From NCBI RefSeq assembly GCF_055900595.2, contig NZ_CM148325.1: a stretch of 64,000 nucleotides of DNA, one strand, 5' to 3'. The position numbers and the translations under genes were made by a program. Numbering within the stretch: the first letter of the stretch is position 1; every line of letters starts with the position of its first letter. The notes under the pieces were generated by a model. That model was not told the DNA's origin. It searched no databases and was given only the letters and a program-made list of their open reading frames with translations. This document shows, one piece after another, positions 7,622 to 56,188 of this stretch.

Positions 7622-8785
7622 ATGTTTGTAGAAGCATTGAAACGCCAGAACCCGGCACTGATTTCCGCCGCACTAAGATTGTGGCAACAGGGCAAGATCG
7701 CCCCGGACAGTTGGGTAATCGACGTGGATCAGATACTGGAAAACGGTAAGCGGCTGATTGAGACGGCGCGGCTTTACGGCATTGAACTGTATCTGATGAC
7801 CAAGCAGTTTGGTCGTAATCCGTGGCTGGCGGAAAAACTACTGGCATTGGGCTACAGCGGCATTGTGGCGGTGGATTACAAAGAGGCGCGAGTCATGCGC
7901 CGCGCCGGTTTGCCGGTGGCGCATCAGGGGCATCTGGTACAAATCCCTTGTCATCAGGTTTCTGACGCCGTTGAACAGGGCACCGACGTCATCACCGTGT
8001 TTACACTCGACAAAGCGCGGGAAGTTTCTGCCGCAGCGGTGACGGCCGGGCGGGTCCAGCCTGTGCTGCTCAAAGTTTATAGCGACGATGATTTTCTTTA
8101 TCCGGGGCAGGAGAGCGGTTTTGCACAGCATTCGCTGCATGAGGTGGTTGCTGAAATCCAGAAACTACCGGGGTTACATTTAGCCGGATTAACCCATTTC
8201 CCTTGCCTGCTATGGGATGAGGCTGCCGGGAAAGTTTTGCCAACACCGAACCTCCAGACGCTGGTCAATGCTCGTAACCAACTTCTGAAGTCTGGAGTTG
8301 TACTTGAGCAATTAAACGCGCCTTCAGCGACCAGCTGCACTTCGCTGCCATTACTGGCGGAATACGGTGTGACTCATGCCGAACCCGGCCATGCACTGAC
8401 GGGGACGATTCCGGCAAACCAGCAGGGCGACCAACCCGAACGTATCGCCATGCTTTGGCTGAGCGAAATTTCCCATCACTTCCGTGGCGACAGCTACTGC
8501 TACGGCGGCGGTTATTACCGTCGTGGTCACGCGCAACATGCGCTGGTGTTTACGCCAGAAAATCAAAAGATTACTGAAACCAATATCAAAACTGTGGATG
8601 ACAGCAGTATCGACTACACCCTGCCGCTGGCAGGCGAGTATCCGGTGAGCAGTGCAGTGGTGCTCTGTTTTCGCACGCAGATTTTTGTCACCCGTAGCGA
8701 TGTGGTGCTGGTGTCCGGTATTCACCGTGGCGAACCGGAAATCGTTGGTCGTTATGACAGTCTTGGAAGCTCTCTGGAGGCGTAA
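7622..8785 (+). CDS. yhfX: putative PLP-dependent enzyme (alanine-racemase-like fold), function unknown
   Basis: 387-aa ORF; stop overlaps yhfW start by 1 nt. Confidence 0.75.
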
Positions 8786-10011
8786 TGGCGCGATTTGTGG
8801 TGTTAGTGATTGATAGCTTTGGCGTAGGCGCAATGAAAGATGTCACGTTGGTGCGCCCACAGGATGCCGGGGCGAATACCTGTGGTCACATCCTGAGCCA
8901 ACTGCCGCATTTGCAGCTACCAACGCTGGAGAAGCTGGGGCTAATCAACGCATTAGGTTATGCGCCAGGCGATATGCAGCCGTCAGACTCCGCAACCTGG
9001 GGTGTGGCAGAGCTGCAACATGAAGGTGGCGATACCTTTATGGGGCATCAGGAAATTTTAGGCACGCGCCCGTTACCGCCGCTGCGGATGCCCTTTCGCG
9101 ATGTGATTGACCGTGTTGAACAGGCATTAGTCACCGCTGGCTGGCGGGTTGAGCGCCGTGGCGAAGAGTTGCAATTTCTGTGGGTTAATCAGTCGGTTGC
9201 CATTGGCGATAACCTCGAGGCGGATTTAGGCCAGGTCTATAACATCACCGCCAATCTCTCTGCGATCTCTTTTGACGACGCAATCAAAATTGGTCGTATC
9301 GTGCGTGAGCAGGTACAGGCCGGTCGGGTCATTACATTTGGCGGCCTGTTAACTGACAGTCAGCGCATTCTCGATGCCGCAGAAAGCAAAGAAGGGCGCT
9401 TTATTGGCATCAATGCGCCGCGTTCTGGCGCTTATGACAATGGCTTCCAGGTCGTACATATGGGCTACGGCGTCGATGAAAAAGTGCAGGTGCCGCACCA
9501 ACTGCATCAAGTGGGCGTGCCCACGGTGCTGGTGGGTAAGGTGGCAGATATTGTCAGCAATCCTTATGGCGTGAGCTGGCAAAACCTGGTGGATAGCCAG
9601 CGGATTATGGATGTCACCCTCGACGAATTTAACACGCATCCGACGGCGTTTATTTGCACCAATATCCAGGAAACCGACCTCGCTGGTCACGCAGAAGACG
9701 TCGCACGTTATGCTGAACGTTTGCAGGTCGTTGACCGTAACCTTGTCCGGCTTGTTGAGGCGATGCAGCCAGATGATTGCCTGGTCGTGATGGCGGATCA
9801 CGGTAACGATCCGACCATTGGTCACAGCCACCATACCCGTGAAGTAGTGCCAGTGCTGGTTTATCAGCAAGGGCTGGTCCACACGCAACTCGGTGTGCGC
9901 ACCACGCTTTCTGATGTGGGGGCTACCGTGTGTGAATTTTTCCGTGCGCCACCGCCACAAAATGGTCGCTCTTTTCTTTCCTCCCTCCGGTTTGCAGGAG
10001 ACACCCTATGA
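8785..10011 (+). CDS. yhfW: phosphopentomutase-like metalloenzyme, function unknown
   Basis: 408-aa ORF; N-terminus [11 protein letters not shown] resembles the DeoB metal-binding DSxGxG motif; overlaps php by 4 nt. Confidence 0.75.
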
Positions 10012-10886
10012 GTTTTGATCCGACGGGCTTCACCCTCGCCCATGAGCATCTGCATATTGATCTCTCCGGCTTTAAAAACAACGTGGACTGCCGCCTTGAT
10101 CAGTATGCGTTCATTTGCCAGGAGATGAACGACCTGATGGCACAGGGTGTGCGTAATGTGATTGAGATGACCAACCGTTACATGGGGCGCAATGCACAAT
10201 TTATGCTCGATGTAATGCACGAGACGGGGATCAACGTGGTGGCCTGCACCGGTTATTACCAGGACGCGTTTTTCCCGCAACATGTGGCGACCCGCAGCGT
10301 GCAGGAACTGGCGCAGGAGATGGTCGATGAAATTGAACAGGGTATCGATGGCACGGAGCTGAAAGCCGGGATCATCGCGGAGATTGGCTCCAGCGAAGGA
10401 AAGATTACGCCGCTGGAAGAGAAAGTTTTTATTGCCGCCGCGCTGGCACATAACCAGACCGGACGCTCGATCTCCACGCATACGTCGTTCAGCACGATGG
10501 GGCTGGAGCAATTGGCTCTGTTGCAAGCCCACGGAGTTGATCTTTCGCGCGTCACCGTTGGTCACTGCGATCTGAAAGACAACCTCGACAACATTTTGAA
10601 GATGATCGATCTCGGCGCGTATGTGCAGTTCGACACCATCGGCAAGAACAGTTACTACCCGGACGAAAAGCGCATTGCGATGCTCCACGCGCTACGTGAC
10701 CGTGGGTTGCTGAACCGCGTCATGCTGTCGATGGATATTACGCGCCGCTCTCATTTAAAAGCCAACGGTGGTTATGGCTATGACTATTTATTAACCACCT
10801 TTATTCCGCAATTGCGCCAGTCAGGATTCAGTCAGGCCGATGTGGATGTGATGTTACGTGAAACTCCCTCTCAATTTTTCCAATAA
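10008..10886 (+). CDS. php: phosphotriesterase-homology protein (amidohydrolase superfamily, binuclear metal hydrolase)
   Basis: 292-aa ORF with N-terminal HxH metal motif ([12 protein letters not shown]). Confidence 0.85.
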
Positions 10887-16833: not shown

Positions 16834-19373
16834 GCGTTGTCCTCCACCAGAGTTACCGGGATACGTTCATACGGCGTTGCCGGACGGTGCTGTTCGCGCT
16901 CTGGCACCATCTGCACGTTCGGGTCACGCTTATCGCTGTTGATGAAGTGTTTGAAGCGAGTCTGCGCAGACGGCGTATTGACCGTTTCAGTCCACTCACA
17001 CACTACCGCTTCACGCAGGCGCGCCATCTCTTCTTCCAGATGTGCGTTCAGCCCCAGCTTGTCGTCAATGATCACCGCTTTCAGGTAATCAATGCCGCCT
17101 TCGAGGTTTTCTAACCACGGTGCGGTACGCGTCAGTTTGTCGGCAGTACGGATGTAGAACATCATGAAGCGGTCAAGATATTTGATCAGCGTTTCGCGAT
17201 CGATATCCGCTGCCAGCAGATCCGCATGACGCGGTTTCATGCCGCCGTTACCGCACACATACAGGTTCCAGCCTTTTTCAGTGGCGATAATACCCACATC
17301 TTTACCCTGAGCTTCTGAACATTCACGGGTACAGCCGGAGACACCGAACTTCATTTTGTGCGGCGTACGGATGCCTTTGTAGCGGTTTTCCAGTTCCACG
17401 CCGAGGCCGACGCTGTCGCCAACGCCGTAGCGGCACCAGGTGCTACCCACGCAGGTTTTCGCCATACGCAGTGCTTTCGCATACGCATGACCGGTTTCGA
17501 AACCTGCTTCAATCAGCTGACGCCAGATCTCCGGCAGATCGTCTTTCTGTGCGCCAAACATCGCCAGACGCTGGGAGCCGGTGATTTTGGTGTAGAGATT
17601 AAATTCACGCGCGATACGACCCACTGCCATCAGCCCTTCTGGGGTGATTTCACCACCCGGAGAACGCGGGATCACCGAGTAGGTGCCGTCTTTCTGGATG
17701 TTCGCGAGGAAGTTGTCGTTAGAATCCTGCAGCGGAGTATGTTCCGGCTTCAGAATGTATTCGTTCCAGCAGGAGGCCAGCAGCGAACCGACGGTCGGTT
17801 TACAAACCTCACAACCGTAGCCTTTACCGTGTTTCGCCAGCAGTTCTTCGAAGGTTTTAATGCCTTCAACGCGGATCAAATGGAACAGTTCCTGACGCGA
17901 ATAAGCAAAGTGTTCGCACAGGTTATTGTTAACTTCGATACCCTGTTTTGCCAGTTCCGCGTTCAGTACCTGAGTGACCAGCGGGATACAGCCACCGCAG
18001 CCAGTACCCGCTTTGGTTTCGGCTTTCAGCGCCGCAACGGTGTGGCAGCCTTTGTTGATGGCAGCAATCAGATCGCCTTTGGTGACGTCGAAGCAGGAGC
18101 AGATTTGCGCGCTGTCCGGCAGTTTATCAACACCGATAGACGGCTTGCCGCTACCTGAGTGCGCCGGCAGGATCAGGGAATCCGGGTTTTCCGGCAGTTC
18201 GATTGCATTCAGCACCAGTTGCAGCAGGTTACCGTAGTCGCTGGTATCACCCACCAGTACTGCACCGAGCAGGGTTTTGTTGTCTTCGCTGACAATCAGG
18301 CGTTTGTAGATCTCTTTACTTTCGTCGAGGTAAACGTAGCTACGTGCGCCAGGCGTGCGACCGTGAGCATCACCAATACCGCCTACGTCTACGCCCAGCA
18401 GTTTCAGCTTGGCGCTAAGGTCAGCACCTTCAAAGGCGTTTTCGCTACCGAGAATATGGTCAACGGCGACCTGCGCCATTTTGTAGCCAGGTGCTACCAG
18501 ACCAAATACACGGTTGTTCCAGCTTGCGCATTCACCGATGGCGTAGATATCTGGATCGGAAGTCTGGCAGGAATCATTTATGACGATACCCCCACGCGGA
18601 GCAACGTCCAGACCACACTGGGTTGCCAGCTTATCGCGCGGACGGATACCGGTAGAGAAGACGATAAAGTCGACTTCCAGTTCGCTGCCGTCGGCAAAAC
18701 GCATGGTTTTACGCGCTTCGACACCTTCCTGCACAATCTCAAGAGTGTTTTTGCTGGTGTGAACGCGTACACCCATGCTTTCGATTTTGCGACGCAATTG
18801 CTCGCCGCCCATCTGATCAAGCTGTTCCGCCATCAGCATAGGGGCAAATTCGATAACGTGGGTTTCAATGCCTAAGTTTTTCAGCGCGCCAGCGGCTTCC
18901 AGACCTAACAGGCCGCCGCCAACAACGGCACCGCGCTTACTGCGACGGGCGCAGGATTCAATGGCGTTGAGGTCTTCAATGGTGCGATAGACAAAGCAGT
19001 CCTGAGTATCAGAACCTTTGATTGGCGGGATCCACGGATAGGAACCGGTCGCCATGATCAGCTTGTCATAAAAAACGGTACGTCCGGCGCTGGAGTGAAT
19101 CACCTTCTCCTGACGGTTGATGGTGATAGCGCGTTCGCCGACCAGAACTTTGATACCGTGTTTCTCGTAGAAGCCTTCGCGCACCAGCGACAGCTCTTCG
19201 GCGGTGTGGTGAGAGAAGTAAGACGAGAGGTGTACGCGGTCATAAGCGATGCGCGGTTCTTCACAGAAAACGGTAATATCAAAGTTGGCCGCATCAGATT
19301 TATCAAGAAGATCTTCGATAAAGCGATGGCCGACCATACCGTTACCGATAATTGCGAGTCTGACTTTGCTCAT
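16830..19373 (-). CDS. nirB: nitrite reductase (NADH) large subunit
   Basis: 847-aa ORF with N-terminal FAD/NAD-binding GxGxxG (IIGNGMVG). Confidence 0.95.
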   Translation of the reverse strand: MSKVRLAIIGNGMVGHRFIEDLLDKSDAANFDITVFCEEPRIAYDRVHLSSYFSHHTAEELSLVREGFYEKHGIKVLVGERAITINRQEKVIHSSAGRTVFYDKLIMATGSYPWIPPIKGSDTQDCFVYRTIEDLNAIESCARRSKRGAVVGGGLLGLEAAGALKNLGIETHVIEFAPMLMAEQLDQMGGEQLRRKIESMGVRVHTSKNTLEIVQEGVEARKTMRFADGSELEVDFIVFSTGIRPRDKLATQCGLDVAPRGGIVINDSCQTSDPDIYAIGECASWNNRVFGLVAPGYKMAQVAVDHILGSENAFEGADLSAKLKLLGVDVGGIGDAHGRTPGARSYVYLDESKEIYKRLIVSEDNKTLLGAVLVGDTSDYGNLLQLVLNAIELPENPDSLILPAHSGSGKPSIGVDKLPDSAQICSCFDVTKGDLIAAINKGCHTVAALKAETKAGTGCGGCIPLVTQVLNAELAKQGIEVNNNLCEHFAYSRQELFHLIRVEGIKTFEELLAKHGKGYGCEVCKPTVGSLLASCWNEYILKPEHTPLQDSNDNFLANIQKDGTYSVIPRSPGGEITPEGLMAVGRIAREFNLYTKITGSQRLAMFGAQKDDLPEIWRQLIEAGFETGHAYAKALRMAKTCVGSTWCRYGVGDSVGLGVELENRYKGIRTPHKMKFGVSGCTRECSEAQGKDVGIIATEKGWNLYVCGNGGMKPRHADLLAADIDRETLIKYLDRFMMFYIRTADKLTRTAPWLENLEGGIDYLKAVIIDDKLGLNAHLEEEMARLREAVVCEWTETVNTPSAQTRFKHFINSDKRDPNVQMVPEREQHRPATPYERIPVTLVEDNA

Positions 19374-32247: not shown

Positions 32248-32952
32248 ATGATGTCTCAGCCAGCGAAAGTTTTGCTGCTGTATGCCCATCCGGAATCTCA
32301 GGACTCGGTGGCAAACCGGGTACTGCTTAAACCGGCCACGCAGCTCAGCAATGTTACCGTGCACGACCTTTATGCACACTATCCCGATTTTTTTATTGAT
32401 ATCCCCCGTGAGCAGGCATTACTGCGCGAGCACGAGGTGATTGTCTTTCAGCACCCTCTTTATACCTATAGCTGCCCGGCGCTACTGAAAGAGTGGCTGG
32501 ACCGGGTATTAAGCCGTGGTTTTGCCAGCGGGCCGGGAGGAAACCAACTGGCGGGAAAGTACTGGCGTAGCGTGATTACCACCGGCGAGCCGGAAAGTGC
32601 TTACCGTTATGACGCATTGAATCGCTACCCGATGAGCGATGTTCTGCGCCCCTTTGAGCTGGCGGCGGGCATGTGCCGGATGCATTGGTTAAGTCCTATC
32701 ATTATTTACTGGGCGAGACGGCAAAGCGCACAGGAGCTGGCGAGTCACGCCAGAGCCTACGGTGACTGGCTGGCAATCCGCTGTCTCCAGGAGGCTGCTG
32801 ATGGAAGGTTCCGATTTTTTACTCGCAGGAGTGCTGTTTCTCTTCGCGGCGGTGGCTGCGGTGCCGTTGGCATCGCGGCTGGGTATTGGCGCGGTGTTGG
32901 GATATTTGCTGGCAGGGATTGCAATTGGCCCGTGGGGGCTAGGGTTTATTAG
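32248..32952 (+). CDS. kefG: glutathione-regulated K+ efflux ancillary protein KefG (NAD(P)H quinone-oxidoreductase-like); 3' end apparently frameshifted
   Basis: As read, a 234-aa ORF running 152 nt into kefB; inserting one A at the AA pair around 32775-32776 restores a 184-aa product ending at TGA overlapping the kefB ATG. Confidence 0.8.
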
Positions 32953-34606
32953 CGACGTCGATGAGATCCTCCACTTTTCGGAACTCGGCGTGGTATTCCT
33001 GATGTTTATCATCGGCCTTGAGTTGAATCCCTCCAAGCTTTGGCAACTGCGCCGTTCGATTTTTGGCGTAGGCGCGGCACAGGTGCTGTTAAGCGCGGCG
33101 TTGCTGGCGGGATTATTGATGCTGACGGATTTCGCCTGGCAGGCGGCGGTGGTCGGTGGCATTGGCCTTGCGATGTCTTCAACTGCAATGGCGTTGCAAT
33201 TGATGCGTGAGAAAGGGATGAATCGCAGCGAATCCGGCCAGTTAGGTTTCTCGGTACTGCTGTTTCAGGATCTGGCGGTGATCCCGGCACTGGCGTTAGT
33301 ACCGCTGCTGGCGGGATCGGCAGATGAACATTTTGACTGGATGAAGATCGGCATGAAGGTGCTGGCGTTTGTCGGCATGCTGATTGGGGGGCGCTATTTA
33401 CTGCGTCCGGTATTCCGTTTTATTGCTGCTTCTGGCGTGCGGGAAGTGTTCACTGCCGCGACGCTGTTGCTGGTGTTGGGTTCCGCATTGTTTATGGATG
33501 CGCTGGGGTTGTCGATGGCGCTCGGTACGTTTATTGCGGGCGTGCTGCTGGCGGAAAGTGAATATCGCCATGAACTGGAAACGGCTATCGATCCCTTCAA
33601 AGGCTTGCTGCTCGGACTGTTTTTTATCTCTGTCGGCATGTCGCTCAACCTCGGGGTGCTTTATACCCATCTGTTGTGGGTAGTGATAAGCGTGGTTGTG
33701 CTGGTGGCGGTGAAAATTCTCGTGCTGTATTTGCTGGCGCGGCTGTATGGCGTGCGTAGCTCAGAGCGGATGCAGTTTGCTGGCGTGTTGAGTCAGGGCG
33801 GTGAGTTTGCCTTTGTCCTCTTTTCTACCGCTTCTTCACAACGCTTATTCCAGGGCGACCAGATGGCGCTATTGCTGGTGACGGTGACGCTTTCCATGAT
33901 GACCACGCCGCTGCTGATGAAGCTGGTGGATAAATGGCTATCCCGCCAGTTTAACGGACCGGAAGAAGAAGACGAAAAACCGTGGGTCAACGATGATAAA
34001 CCCCAGGTCATAGTCGTGGGCTTCGGACGTTTTGGGCAGGTGATTGGTCGTTTGTTGATGGCCAATAAAATGCGCATTACCGTGCTGGAGCGGGATATCA
34101 GTGCTGTTAACCTGATGCGCAAATATGGCTACAAAGTTTATTACGGCGACGCCACGCAGGTAGATCTTTTACGTTCTGCGGGTGCAGAGGCCGCAGAGTC
34201 AATCGTCATTACCTGTAACGAACCGGAAGACACCATGAAGCTGGTGGAAATATGCCAGCAGCACTTCCCGCATTTGCATATTCTTGCGCGAGCGCGCGGA
34301 CGTGTGGAAGCGCATGAGTTATTACAGGCCGGGGTGACGCAGTTTTCCCGTGAAACATTCTCCAGTGCGTTAGAGCTGGGGCGCAAGACGTTGGTTACGC
34401 TTGGGATGCATCCGCATCAGGCACAGCGGGCGCAACTGCATTTTCGCCGCCTGGATATGCGGATGTTGCGGGAGCTCATACCGATGCATGCCGATACCGT
34501 ACAAATTTCTCGCGCCAGGGAAGCCCGACGCGAACTGGAAGAGATCTTCCAGCGTGAAATGCAACAAGAACGACGCCAGCTGGATGGCTGGGATGAATTT
34601 GAGTAG
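32801..34606 (+). CDS. kefB: glutathione-regulated potassium-efflux system protein KefB
   Basis: 601-aa reading from ATG ([15 protein letters not shown]...) preceded by GGAGG; track ORF starts 13 codons upstream. Confidence 0.9.
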
Positions 34607-34615
34607 AGGATAACG

Positions 34616-34816
34616 ATGGCAATCCGAAAACGTTTTATTGCGGGCGCAAAATGCCCGGCCTGTCAGGCGCAGGATTCAATGGCGATGTGGCGCGAAAATA
34701 ATATTGATATTGTTGAATGTGTTAAGTGCGGACATCAAATGCGAGAAGCAGACAAAGAAGCCCGCGATCACGTTCGCAAAGATGAGCAAGTGATCGGGAT
34801 TTTTCATCCGGACTAG
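34616..34816 (+). CDS. yheV: small zinc-ribbon protein
   Basis: 66-aa ORF with CPAC...CVKCGH cysteine pairs. Confidence 0.7.
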   Translation: MAIRKRFIAGAKCPACQAQDSMAMWRENNIDIVECVKCGHQMREADKEARDHVRKDEQVIGIFHPD

Positions 34817-34910
34817 CGATATGCGCCGAGATTTTTTAAGCTAGTGAGTACACGGCTGCAGAATTCCGCTACAATCTGCGCCACTATTCTTCCCATGCTC
34901 AGGAGATATC

Positions 34911-35501
34911 ATGAAAGTAGCAAAAGACCTGGTGGTCAGCCTGGCCTATCAGGTACGTACAGAAGACGGTGTGTTGGTTGATGAGTCTCCGGTGAGTGCG
35001 CCGCTGGACTACCTGCATGGTCACGGTTCCCTGATCTCTGGCCTGGAAACGGCGCTGGAAGGTCACGAAGTTGGCGACAAATTTGATGTCGCTGTTGGCG
35101 CGAACGACGCTTATGGTCAATACGACGAAAACCTGGTGCAGCGCGTTCCTAAAGATGTATTTATGGGCGTTGATGAACTGCAGGTTGGTATGCGTTTCCT
35201 GGCTGAAACCGACCAGGGTCCGGTACCGGTTGAAATCACTGCGGTTGAAGACGATCACGTCGTGGTTGATGGTAACCACATGCTGGCCGGTCAGAACCTG
35301 AAATTCAACGTTGAAGTTGTGGCGATTCGCGAAGCGACTGAAGAAGAGCTGGCTCATGGCCACGTTCACGGTGCGCACGATCATCACCACGATCACGACC
35401 ACGACGGTTGCTGCGGTGGTCATGGCCACGATCACGGTCATGAGCACGGTGGCGAAGGCTGCTGTGGCGGTAAAGGTAACGGCGGTTGCGGTTGCCACTA
35501 A
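34911..35501 (+). CDS. slyD: FKBP-type peptidyl-prolyl isomerase SlyD with His/Cys-rich metal-binding tail
   Basis: 196-aa ORF; C-terminal tail HGHVHGAHDHHHDHDHDGCCGGHGHDHGHEHGGEGCCGG. Confidence 0.95.
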   Translation: MKVAKDLVVSLAYQVRTEDGVLVDESPVSAPLDYLHGHGSLISGLETALEGHEVGDKFDVAVGANDAYGQYDENLVQRVPKDVFMGVDELQVGMRFLAETDQGPVPVEITAVEDDHVVVDGNHMLAGQNLKFNVEVVAIREATEEELAHGHVHGAHDHHHDHDHDGCCGGHGHDHGHEHGGEGCCGGKGNGGCGCH

Positions 35502-35515
35502 TACCGAAAAAGTGA

Positions 35516-35545
35516 CAAAAAAGCGGGGAATCCCCGCTTTTTTTA
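35516..35545. terminator. bidirectional rho-independent terminator between convergent slyD and slyX
   Basis: AAAAAAGCGGGG-aat-CCCCGCTTTTTTT with A-run and T-run on either side. Confidence 0.8.
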
Positions 35546-35549
35546 CGCC

Positions 35550-35768
35550 TCAATAATGTGGCGGTGGCGTTTCTTCAGCCTGCGACGCGATGTTCGACGG
35601 CTGGCTGGCTTTTAGCTTCTCGGTCAGCAGACGCAGATGATCGCGCAGTTTCGCCATCTCCATTTCATGAGCGGTCACCGTGACGTTCAGTTCTTCAATG
35701 GTGATTTCCTGAAAAGCCAGTCGGCTCTCCAGCTCTGCCAGGCGTGCTTCCAATGATAAATCCTGCAT
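35550..35768 (-). CDS. slyX: small coiled-coil protein SlyX
   Basis: 72-aa ORF. Confidence 0.75.
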
Positions 35769-39798: not shown

Positions 39799-39882
39799 TC
39801 CCTTCGGAGTTTTAGTCACCAGGCGGGCGCTTCCAGTAAGCAGCCCGCTTTGGGCTACTTAAATTGAACGCCTAAAAGATAA

Positions 39883-42009
<2,127 letters not shown>

Positions 42010-42022
42010 GCCTAAGGGTTAA

Positions 42023-43264
<1,242 letters not shown>

Positions 43265-43288
43265 TTACACGTTAATTAGTTTCGAATT

Positions 43289-43314
43289 AAAAAGGGCGCT
43301 TCGGCGCCCTTTTT
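43289..43314 (+). terminator. rho-independent terminator after tufA
   Basis: AAAAAGGGCGC-ttcg-GCGCCCTTTTT. Confidence 0.85.
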
Positions 43315-43391
43315 GCTGCCCGTAATTTGAGCTCGAAATATTTAGTCGTAATTTCACTCGCTGAACTATGGCGCAAATTAAACTGTGCTAT

Positions 43392-43413
43392 TGTAATCAT
43401 AACCATTCTCATT
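43392..43413 (+). promoter_or_regulatory. putative Fur-box-like element upstream of bfd
   Basis: TGTAATCATAACCATTCTCATT, AT-rich hexamer repeats resembling GATAATGATAATCATTATC, 33 nt before the bfd start. Confidence 0.35.
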
Positions 43414-43446
43414 TACACTTTGCGCAGAATTTGAACGGGAGCAATC

Positions 43447-43641
43447 ATGTACGTTTGTTTGTGTAATGGTGTAAGTGACAAAAAAATTCGCCAGGCAGTC
43501 CGTCAGTTTCATCCGCAATCTTTCCAACAATTGCGTAAGTTTATTCCTGTGGGAAATCAATGCGGTAAGTGCATTCGCGCCGCGCGCGAAGTGATGCAGG
43601 ACGAGTTGATGCAGATGCCAGAATTTAAAGAGATTGCCTGA
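43447..43641 (+). CDS. bfd: bacterioferritin-associated ferredoxin
   Basis: 64-aa ORF with [2Fe-2S] cysteines (CLCNGVSD ... NQCGKC). Confidence 0.85.
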   Translation: MYVCLCNGVSDKKIRQAVRQFHPQSFQQLRKFIPVGNQCGKCIRAAREVMQDELMQMPEFKEIA

Positions 43642-43713
43642 AGCCCACGCTTATTTTTTGACATCCCGCTAGCCCCATCTACGCTCTAATAGTGGAAGCG
43701 GAGGGACTATAAA

Positions 43714-44190
43714 ATGAAAGGTGATGTTAAAATCATAAATTATCTCAATAAACTATTGGGAAATGAGCTTGTCGCAATCAATCAGTATTTTCTCCATGCC
43801 CGGATGTTTAAAAACTGGGGCCTGATGCGTCTCAATGACGTCGAATACCATGAATCTATTGATGAGATGAAACACGCTGATAAATATATCGAGCGTATTT
43901 TGTTTTTAGAAGGAATCCCTAACTTACAGGATTTAGGCAAACTGGGGATTGGTGAAGATGTCGAGGAGATGCTGCAATCCGACCTGCGATTAGAACTGGA
44001 AGGCGCGAAGGATCTCCGTGAGGCTATCGCGTATGCCGACAGCGTTCATGACTATGTTAGCCGTGATATGATGATCGAGATCCTTGCCGATGAAGAAGGT
44101 CATATTGACTGGCTCGAAACTGAGCTGGATCTCATCGGTAAAATCGGTTTACAAAATTACCTGCAATCACAAATAAAAGTTAAAGATTAA
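43714..44190 (+). CDS. bfr: bacterioferritin
   Basis: 158-aa ORF, N-term [31 protein letters not shown]. Confidence 0.95.
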
Positions 44191-44654
44191 CGGCCTGCCA
44201 GCAAACTATCCCAGCCTACAACGAAACCCGCAGCCGCCAGAAATGGCCCAAACGGCAGCGGGTTTTTTAATGACTCTTTTCCTCTCATGAGCAGACCAAT
44301 AACTACGGCTCCGCAAGCGAATGAGGCAGCAAGGAAAACCAGTCGTGGCAAGAAGGTCCATGTATGCCAGGCACCAAGGGCGGCGAGAAACTTCACATCA
44401 CCATAGCCTAATCCTTCTTTATGACGCAGTATGCGATACCCCCAGTAAATGACAGCGAATGTGCCGTAACCAATAATCGCCCCCCATAACGCATCGGCTA
44501 AACCGTCAGGATTACAAACCTGATAGAACAAAAGACCTGACCAGAGTAACGGGCACGTAAATCTGTCAGGTAACAAGCCATGCTTTGCATCCCAGAAAAA
44601 AAGTAGGGCTGATAAACAAGCGTACAAAATCAGAAAGGGAAGGGTAGCGTCCAT
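44187..44654 (-). CDS. short-form prepilin (leader) peptidase, A24 family, HopD-like
   Basis: 155-aa polytopic ORF with [14 protein letters not shown] (GxGD catalytic aspartate motif); stop codon shares 3 nt with the bfr stop. Confidence 0.7.
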
Positions 44655-44827
44655 AAAACATCCTCTGTAATTGGAGTATCACCATCGAATAACTGCGGAT
44701 GCTCAGCAACAGAGAAATCGCTGATTTGTTAACCTGATTCCGGTGAAAAACGCTATCTTCACAACCTTACAAATTTCGTGGAATGCAGCTCGCAATCTGC
44801 GCGTTGCGATTAATTTCTACCCGATGC

Positions 44828-44855
44828 TTGCGTCAGGCTCAGATTTGCGTATAAT
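44828..44855 (+). promoter_or_regulatory. S10 operon promoter (-35 TTGCGT, 16-nt spacer, -10 TATAAT)
   Basis: Hexamers about 180 nt upstream of rpsJ, consistent with the known long S10 leader. Confidence 0.7.
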
Positions 44856-44861
44856 GCGCGG

Positions 44862-45344
<483 letters not shown>

Positions 45345-55732: not shown

Positions 55733-55822
55733 AGCCAGCCAATCTTTTGTATGTCTGTGCGTTTCCATTTGAGTATCCTGAAAACGGGCTTTTCAGCATG
55801 GAACGTACATATTAAATAGTAG

Positions 55823-56188
<366 letters not shown>

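Follow-up and report, generated by a model that had tools for sequence, protein, structure and literature searches.

Work characterising SlyD and its metal-binding tail goes back to the 1990s, and open reading frames (ORFs) that lie antisense to annotated genes, in codon register with them, are a familiar annotation trap. According to the passages of PMC7055735 that deal with the E. coli protein, SlyD consists of a PPIase (peptidyl-prolyl isomerase) domain, a chaperone domain inserted in the flap, and a C-terminal tail that is unstructured and has many His, Cys, Asp and Glu residues. The same passages report that up to seven Ni(II) ions are bound by the protein with sub-micromolar affinity, that bound metal inhibits the isomerase reversibly, and that the tail stimulates release of Ni from HypB and is required for maturation of [NiFe]-hydrogenase. 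A protein cut at residue 155 is described there as still binding one Ni, via His149, 151 and 153, and as failing to activate [NiFe]-hydrogenase in vivo; the tail is also said to vary among SlyDs. A portion of PMC11198818 agrees in brief on the function of the tail, and portions of the published work on the identical protein describe binding of other divalent metals too, with the tail acting as a nickel reservoir and donor.

Comparable low-complexity segments rich in His, or in His and Cys, are found in the tail of H. pylori SlyD, in His-rich stretches of some HypB proteins, in the tail of K. aerogenes UreE and in Hpn; passages of PMC7055735 describe these segments as binding several Ni ions and as proposed Ni stores or donors. 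The other nickel proteins in this group are unrelated to SlyD in sequence and have different carrier domains; those passages report that the UreE tail can be dispensed with, in contrast to the SlyD tail, which hydrogenase maturation requires.

The locus described here lies in a 64-kb stretch of DNA, the whole of which is referred to as the window. The gene, its parts and its immediate neighbours are as follows.

34911..35501, plus strand: slyD coding sequence, 196 codons and a TAA stop (ORF list, PDB match, Pfam, RefSeq annotation); the product is an FKBP-type peptidyl-prolyl isomerase, chaperone and Ni metallochaperone
34901..34905, plus strand: slyD Shine-Dalgarno sequence AGGAG, 5 nt 5' of the ATG (read directly from the sequence)
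34911..35348, plus strand: folded part of SlyD, residues 1-146, an FKBP domain with an inserted IF chaperone domain
35349..35498, plus strand: C-terminal tail of SlyD rich in His, Cys, Gly and Asp, residues 147-196, the metal-binding region
34616..34816, plus strand: yheV, upstream gene for a zinc-ribbon protein (Pfam DUF2387, E = 2.6e-19; annotation)
35550..35768, minus strand: slyX, convergent neighbour (Pfam SlyX, E = 5e-23; annotation)

We found that the window protein is identical to E. coli SlyD in the PDB (2KFW, chain 2kfw_A) at 196 of 196 residues (100%). Chains of truncated SlyD (2k8i, residues 1-166, and 8g01, residues 1-154) align to the folded part, structures of Thermus SlyD also match, and the Pfam FKBP_C family (PF00254) is recognised with 35.6 bits against a cut-off of 21.1 (E = 1.2e-8). 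The same locus is annotated as slyD in RefSeq genomes. Of the 5,426 complete E. coli genomes, 5,425 are matched by a 711-base query covering the slyD region, and the annotation at all the matches listed is slyD with the adjoining slyX; the one remaining genome has no slyD match, and one of the matches sits on a record labelled as a plasmid. The gene order kefB-yheV-slyD-slyX-fkpA, in which slyX is on the minus strand, is common to the window and E. coli genomes, and is kept in Salmonella, Klebsiella, Yersinia, Photorhabdus and Serratia.

The K-12 protein (2KFW, 2K8I; WP_000861334.1) is the same as that of the window across all 196 residues, has the same neighbours, and carries a RefSeq protein accession, WP_000861334.1, that is shared with the genome nearest to the window. 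The two alleles differ at 14 DNA positions, every one of them a third codon position and synonymous for SlyD. Strain Z0117EC0005 is 99.7% identical to the window over 64 kb, and the window belongs to an E. coli lineage other than K-12. The locus is therefore E. coli slyD itself, with every defining feature that can be tested by sequence present, and the gene had been named correctly in the preliminary description. We regard the full account given below as close to certain: slyD with a metal-binding tail, length alleles of that tail at short repeats, most simply due to slippage, and an antisense ORF that is not a gene. SlyD, the metal-binding tail and the antisense artefact are already known, and nothing here is new in kind; the modestly new material is limited to an explicit series of tail-length alleles and the repeats at their end points.

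The 196-residue product terminates in LAHGHVHGAHDHHHDHDHDGCCGGHGHDHGHEHGGEGCCGGKGNGGCGCH, its last 50 residues, which comprise 15 His, 6 Cys, 16 Gly, 5 Asp and 2 Glu. Among the remaining 75 window proteins the averages are 2.4% His and 1.1% Cys. Against this background the binomial probability of at least 21 His and Cys in 50 residues is approximately 5e-18, and the next-richest stretch of 50 residues among window proteins contains 7. The tail is encoded by CAC, CAT, GAC, GAT, GGN and TGC codons arranged in short imperfect repeats. A His/Cys-rich tail of about 50 codons had been noticed from the sequence and placed where we find it, its proposed start (35350) lying one base off the boundary of codon 147 (35349), which is immaterial; its description as the known Ni/Zn-binding region is the accepted label and comes from the literature, of which the relevant passages are in PMC7055735. 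The metal binding and hydrogenase role that we ascribe to the tail are likewise carried over from the literature on the identical protein rather than computed from the sequence.

Beyond E. coli, the SlyDs that we examined in Enterobacterales range from 173 to 209 residues overall, with a nearly constant body, and their tails span approximately 27 to 63 residues. The shortest tail belongs to a 173-residue form in Klebsiella (about 27 residues; 164 member sequences) and the longest to the 209-residue protein of Pragia (about 63 residues). In five orthologue loci from Enterobacterales the body is 88-99% identical, and the tails differ in length and composition. The orthologues in Salmonella, Klebsiella, Serratia, Yersinia, Photorhabdus, Pragia and Erwinia share the FKBP and IF body and the synteny of the window gene, but differ from it in the repeat pattern of the tail. 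Nearly all the Enterobacterales proteins that we examined keep the start of the tail (HGHVHG) and its end (GCGCH).

These comparisons bear on the suggestion that the tail is low-complexity sequence which is simply tolerated and has no role of its own. The tail is unstructured and variable in length, its length variants are tolerated, and it is absent from some SlyD homologues, for example that of Thermus, all of which such a suggestion would lead one to expect. It would not lead one to expect that the terminal motifs of the tail (EELAHGHVHG... and ...GGCGCH) and its richness in His and Cys are retained in almost all the Enterobacterales proteins examined, nor that all six substitutions in the tail between the window and K-12 alleles are synonymous. 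Passages of PMC7055735 furthermore report binding of multiple Ni ions and loss of hydrogenase activation on truncation at residue 155. We consider a functionless tail highly improbable, and treat the segment in what follows as a metal-binding tail.

Opposite slyD lies a long antisense ORF. It is given here with other long antisense ORFs of the window and with a hairpin next to its start.

34899..35498, minus strand: 199-aa antisense ORF with a GTG start, in codon register with slyD, spurious (ORF list)
39859-41445, minus strand: antisense ORF opposite fusA, 528 aa
41849-43174, minus strand: antisense ORF opposite tuf, 441 aa
46867-47922, minus strand: antisense ORF opposite rplB, 351 aa
listed positions including 9864-10688 (minus strand) and 17358-18875 (plus strand): antisense ORFs opposite php (274 aa) and nirB (266 and 238 aa)
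35517..35543, no strand assigned: hairpin GCGGGG-AAT-CCCCGC, bordered by an A-run at one end and a T-run at the other (terminator scan)

Read on the opposite strand, the antisense GTG (35498-35496) is CAC, the final His codon of slyD, and the antisense TGA is TCA (34899-34901), a triplet overlapping the Shine-Dalgarno region of slyD. The preliminary description was right that a 199-aa antisense ORF exists at 34899-35498; it had placed this ORF opposite the tail, whereas the ORF faces the entire slyD gene, with only 50 of its 199 codons opposite the tail.

No stop interrupts the antisense frame, as slyD avoids the codons TTA, CTA and TCA, the reverse complements of stop codons, none of which occurs in the gene. 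Across the tail the frame is open because of amino-acid composition, as the tail contains one Leu and no Ser, whereas across the body its openness depends on codon choice, with none of the 13 Leu and 5 Ser codons being TTA, CTA or TCA. The probability that all 19 Leu and Ser codons are safe is 0.55 given the codon usage of the ribosomal-protein and elongation-factor genes of the window, and 0.05 given that of its non-ribosomal genes. In codon usage slyD ranks 16th among 76 window genes and second among the 46 non-ribosomal ones, and resembles the ribosomal class; the genes were placed by matching their ends to the annotation of NZ_CP098223.1, which is from a different strain and differs by two indels, and trkA, arfA, zntR, kefG and yhfS were left out of the codon statistics, with yheS, which lies across the junction of annotation loci, also unlisted. 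Across the body, the open antisense frame reflects the ordinary high-expression codon bias of slyD.

The same effect is seen throughout the window. Seventeen of the 76 genes have no in-register antisense stop at all, and annotated window genes without His/Gly repeats are faced by approximately 25 in-register antisense ORFs of 150 aa or more, rpsC being a further example beside those listed above. By length, the slyD antisense ORF ranks about fourteenth in this series. All of these ORFs are the same codon-bias artefact as that of slyD, and in-register antisense ORFs of codon-biased bacterial genes in general are of the same kind, with no difference; what slyD has in addition is a tail portion forced open by amino-acid composition. 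It had been proposed that repetitive CAC/GGC codons produce the antisense ORF. This holds for about a quarter of its length and fails for the other 149 codons, and we reject the repeats as the main cause, as only 50 of the 199 codons are opposite the tail and the same effect is found at non-repetitive genes of the window.

Could the ORF nonetheless be a genuine gene, coding for protein and overlapping slyD? At 199 aa it is long, it begins with GTG, and it is open in E. coli, Salmonella and Klebsiella, a distribution which, taken alone, would fit a young gene, and under the non-ribosomal codon usage of the window its openness is, as given above, fairly unlikely to have come about by chance. The pattern of substitutions speaks against even a young gene. 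Among the 14 differences from K-12, 12 alter an antisense residue and none alters SlyD. Over the first 146 codons, which are free of indels, the sense and antisense products are respectively 98.6% and 76.7% identical to those of the window in Salmonella, 97.3% and 70.5% in Klebsiella, and 88.4% and 53.4% in Photorhabdus. Identity is lost far more quickly for the antisense product than for SlyD, and stops interrupt the antisense frame in Yersinia (one), Serratia (one) and Photorhabdus (four). This pattern shows that the antisense frame is not under purifying selection.

Nor did we find the signals or relatives that a gene might be expected to have. There is no Shine-Dalgarno sequence within 32 nt 5' of the GTG, and a consensus scan returned two promoter-like sites, neither of them placed to drive the ORF. 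On the minus strand the start lies directly downstream of the hairpin at 35517-35543, the putative terminator of slyX. A Pfam scan assigned the product to no family, its exact sequence is absent from approximately 15 billion predicted proteins, and a literature search returned no paper that ties slyD to an antisense overlapping gene. The product is rich in Val, Thr, Phe and Ala, as the complement of SlyD codons would be, and some 25 equally long or longer in-register antisense ORFs face other genes of the window. On the substitutions, the non-conservation, the missing signals and the missing homologues we dismiss the ORF as a gene, the chance that it is one being negligibly small, and the earlier judgement that it is an artefact holds on each of these grounds.

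In the interest of clean annotation, a 199-aa ORF that faces a short gene with codon bias, such as slyD, should not be called a gene; the window alone contains about 25 such traps, any of which a naive ORF reader could flag. Two further spurious ORFs of 81-82 aa overlie the tail in other frames, at 35311-35556 (plus strand) and 35305-35553 (minus strand).

A comparison of tail length with that of other slyD alleles had been suggested, together with the remark that this low-complexity region is prone to indels. The repeats at which we found the tail to vary within E. coli are as follows.

35376..35405, plus strand: imperfect tandem array of His/Asp codons with a period of 6 or 12 nt (Tandem Repeats Finder; allele alignments)
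35387..35397, plus strand: 11-bp direct repeat CCACGATCACG, copy 1, an end point of the 39-bp deletion
35426..35436, plus strand: 11-bp direct repeat CCACGATCACG, copy 2, 39 bp downstream of copy 1
35482..35493, plus strand: tandem GCGGTT GCGGTT, Gly-Cys codons (alignment)

The alleles that differ in length from the window gene are these.

183 aa: deletion of 39 bp (13 codons), with DHDGCCGGHGHDH lost between the copies of CCACGATCACG
192 aa, two kinds: different 12-bp deletions in the His/Asp array, seen in complete genomes
194 aa, first kind: loss of one of the two GCGGTT units at 35482-35493
194 aa, second kind: 6 bp deleted from the His/Asp array, seen in a complete genome
201 aa: tandem duplication of 15 bp within the His/Asp array

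The comparison thus yielded a set of rare in-frame alleles (183, 192, 194 and 201 aa, with two kinds each at 192 and 194), in all of which the indel is a multiple of 3 and lies at a direct or tandem repeat; these repeat-bounded alleles, along with the differing tail lengths between genera, bear out the remark about indels. The His/Asp array, which Tandem Repeats Finder resolves as 2.4 copies of a 12-nt unit and 3.3 copies of a 6-nt unit, is a hot spot for in-frame indels, with changes of -6, -12 (two kinds) and +15 bp. In the protein collection the 183-aa allele is found on 174 contigs, and it is present in at least one complete genome; the 201-aa allele is found on 103 contigs and in at least one complete genome. 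The 194-aa allele that has lost a GCGGTT unit is found on 34 contigs. It has no full-length match among the complete genomes listed, and one more complete-genome record, at least 99% identical to this query, ranks below the matches listed.

The dominant length of SlyD in E. coli is 196 aa. We sampled 60 evenly spaced records from the ranking of the 5,425 genomes, and in 59 of these the match spans 451 or 452 bases of a 451-base query, which excludes a tail indel of one codon or larger; the 60th carries an insertion sequence, IS421, downstream of an intact 196-aa slyD and before slyX. Approximately 31 of 4,296 records (about 0.7%) align abnormally in the His/Asp array, and the 13 of these that are listed include the +15, -12 and -6 bp alleles. 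These figures should be read as those of a sample, obtained through junction-specific queries and spread sampling, in which megablast leaves the 39-bp gap unbridged. We also noted frameshifted SlyD variants of 214 aa (for example P0026), which run into the ORF at 35311-35556 and terminate 18 codons beyond the normal stop; each of the listed variants is on a single contig, such that sequencing error and rare mutants are indistinguishable.

Replication slippage at short repeats, namely the 6- and 12-bp tandems and the 11-bp pair, would give rise to occasional in-frame deletions and duplications, and these in turn could produce both the rare length alleles of E. coli and the very different tail lengths between genera. 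From the end points of the indels at repeats, we infer that slippage is the simplest mechanism.

Whether such variation is adaptive is a separate matter. Tail length might be a tunable trait: as at a contingency locus, nickel capacity or interaction with HypB would be fitted to the niche. In E. coli there are at least seven length classes, all of them in-frame and several on tens to hundreds of contigs; length differs more than two-fold between genera; and passages of PMC7055735 describe the tail as required for hydrogenase maturation and as variable among SlyDs. The repeats, however, are very short (2.4 x 12 nt and 3.3 x 6 nt), and the variants are rare, as seen from the 0.7% of records abnormal in the array and the 59 of 60 sampled records without a tail indel. 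Alleles that are exclusively in-frame would also be expected under neutrality, from purifying selection against frameshifts, and no association with host or source is evident in the records listed. An adaptive tail length is on this evidence improbable, and we give equally little credence to the more specific proposal that recurrent alleles track nickel supply or hydrogenase demand, with slippage supplying the selectable variation. A phase-variable contingency locus was rejected, as the repeat tract is far too short, the alleles are far too rare, and they are consistently in-frame.

Length alleles of the kind catalogued here may be of use in studies of the Ni stoichiometry of SlyD. SlyD is a contaminant in His-tag (metal-affinity) purification, and a shorter tail may bind the resin differently; the catalogue could also be of use where SlyD contaminates such purifications.

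The hairpin between slyD and slyX (35517-35543) has a predicted folding energy of -19.7 kcal/mol (z = -4.67). It is probably a bidirectional intrinsic terminator common to the two convergent genes, a function suggested by its fold and its flanking A- and T-runs. Strain STEC276 has IS421 between slyD and slyX; its match to the window ends inside the hairpin, at approximately 35537.

A scan of the 64-kb window with Rfam gave a single hit, Alpha_RBS at 55753-55864 (plus strand; 102.7 bits), upstream of rpsM. At the gathering threshold there was nothing in or near slyD, and no other ribosomal-protein leader reached its family threshold, though the S10, spc and str operons are present. The interval from tuf to rpsJ (43264-45033) contains only bfd, bfr and a 155-aa prepilin-peptidase ORF on the minus strand. 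We take the corresponding interval of K-12 to hold chiA and the gsp secretion operons, and the lineage of the window appears to be without chiA and the gsp operons at this position. The mechanical ORF for kefB (32762-34606, plus strand) begins at a GTG located 13 codons 5' of the annotated start of the 601-aa protein (32801), and this GTG is probably merely an upstream in-frame start codon. The window also has an intact 408-aa ORF for yhfW (8785-10011, plus strand), which in NZ_CP098223.1, the closest complete genome, is annotated as a pseudogene with an internal stop.
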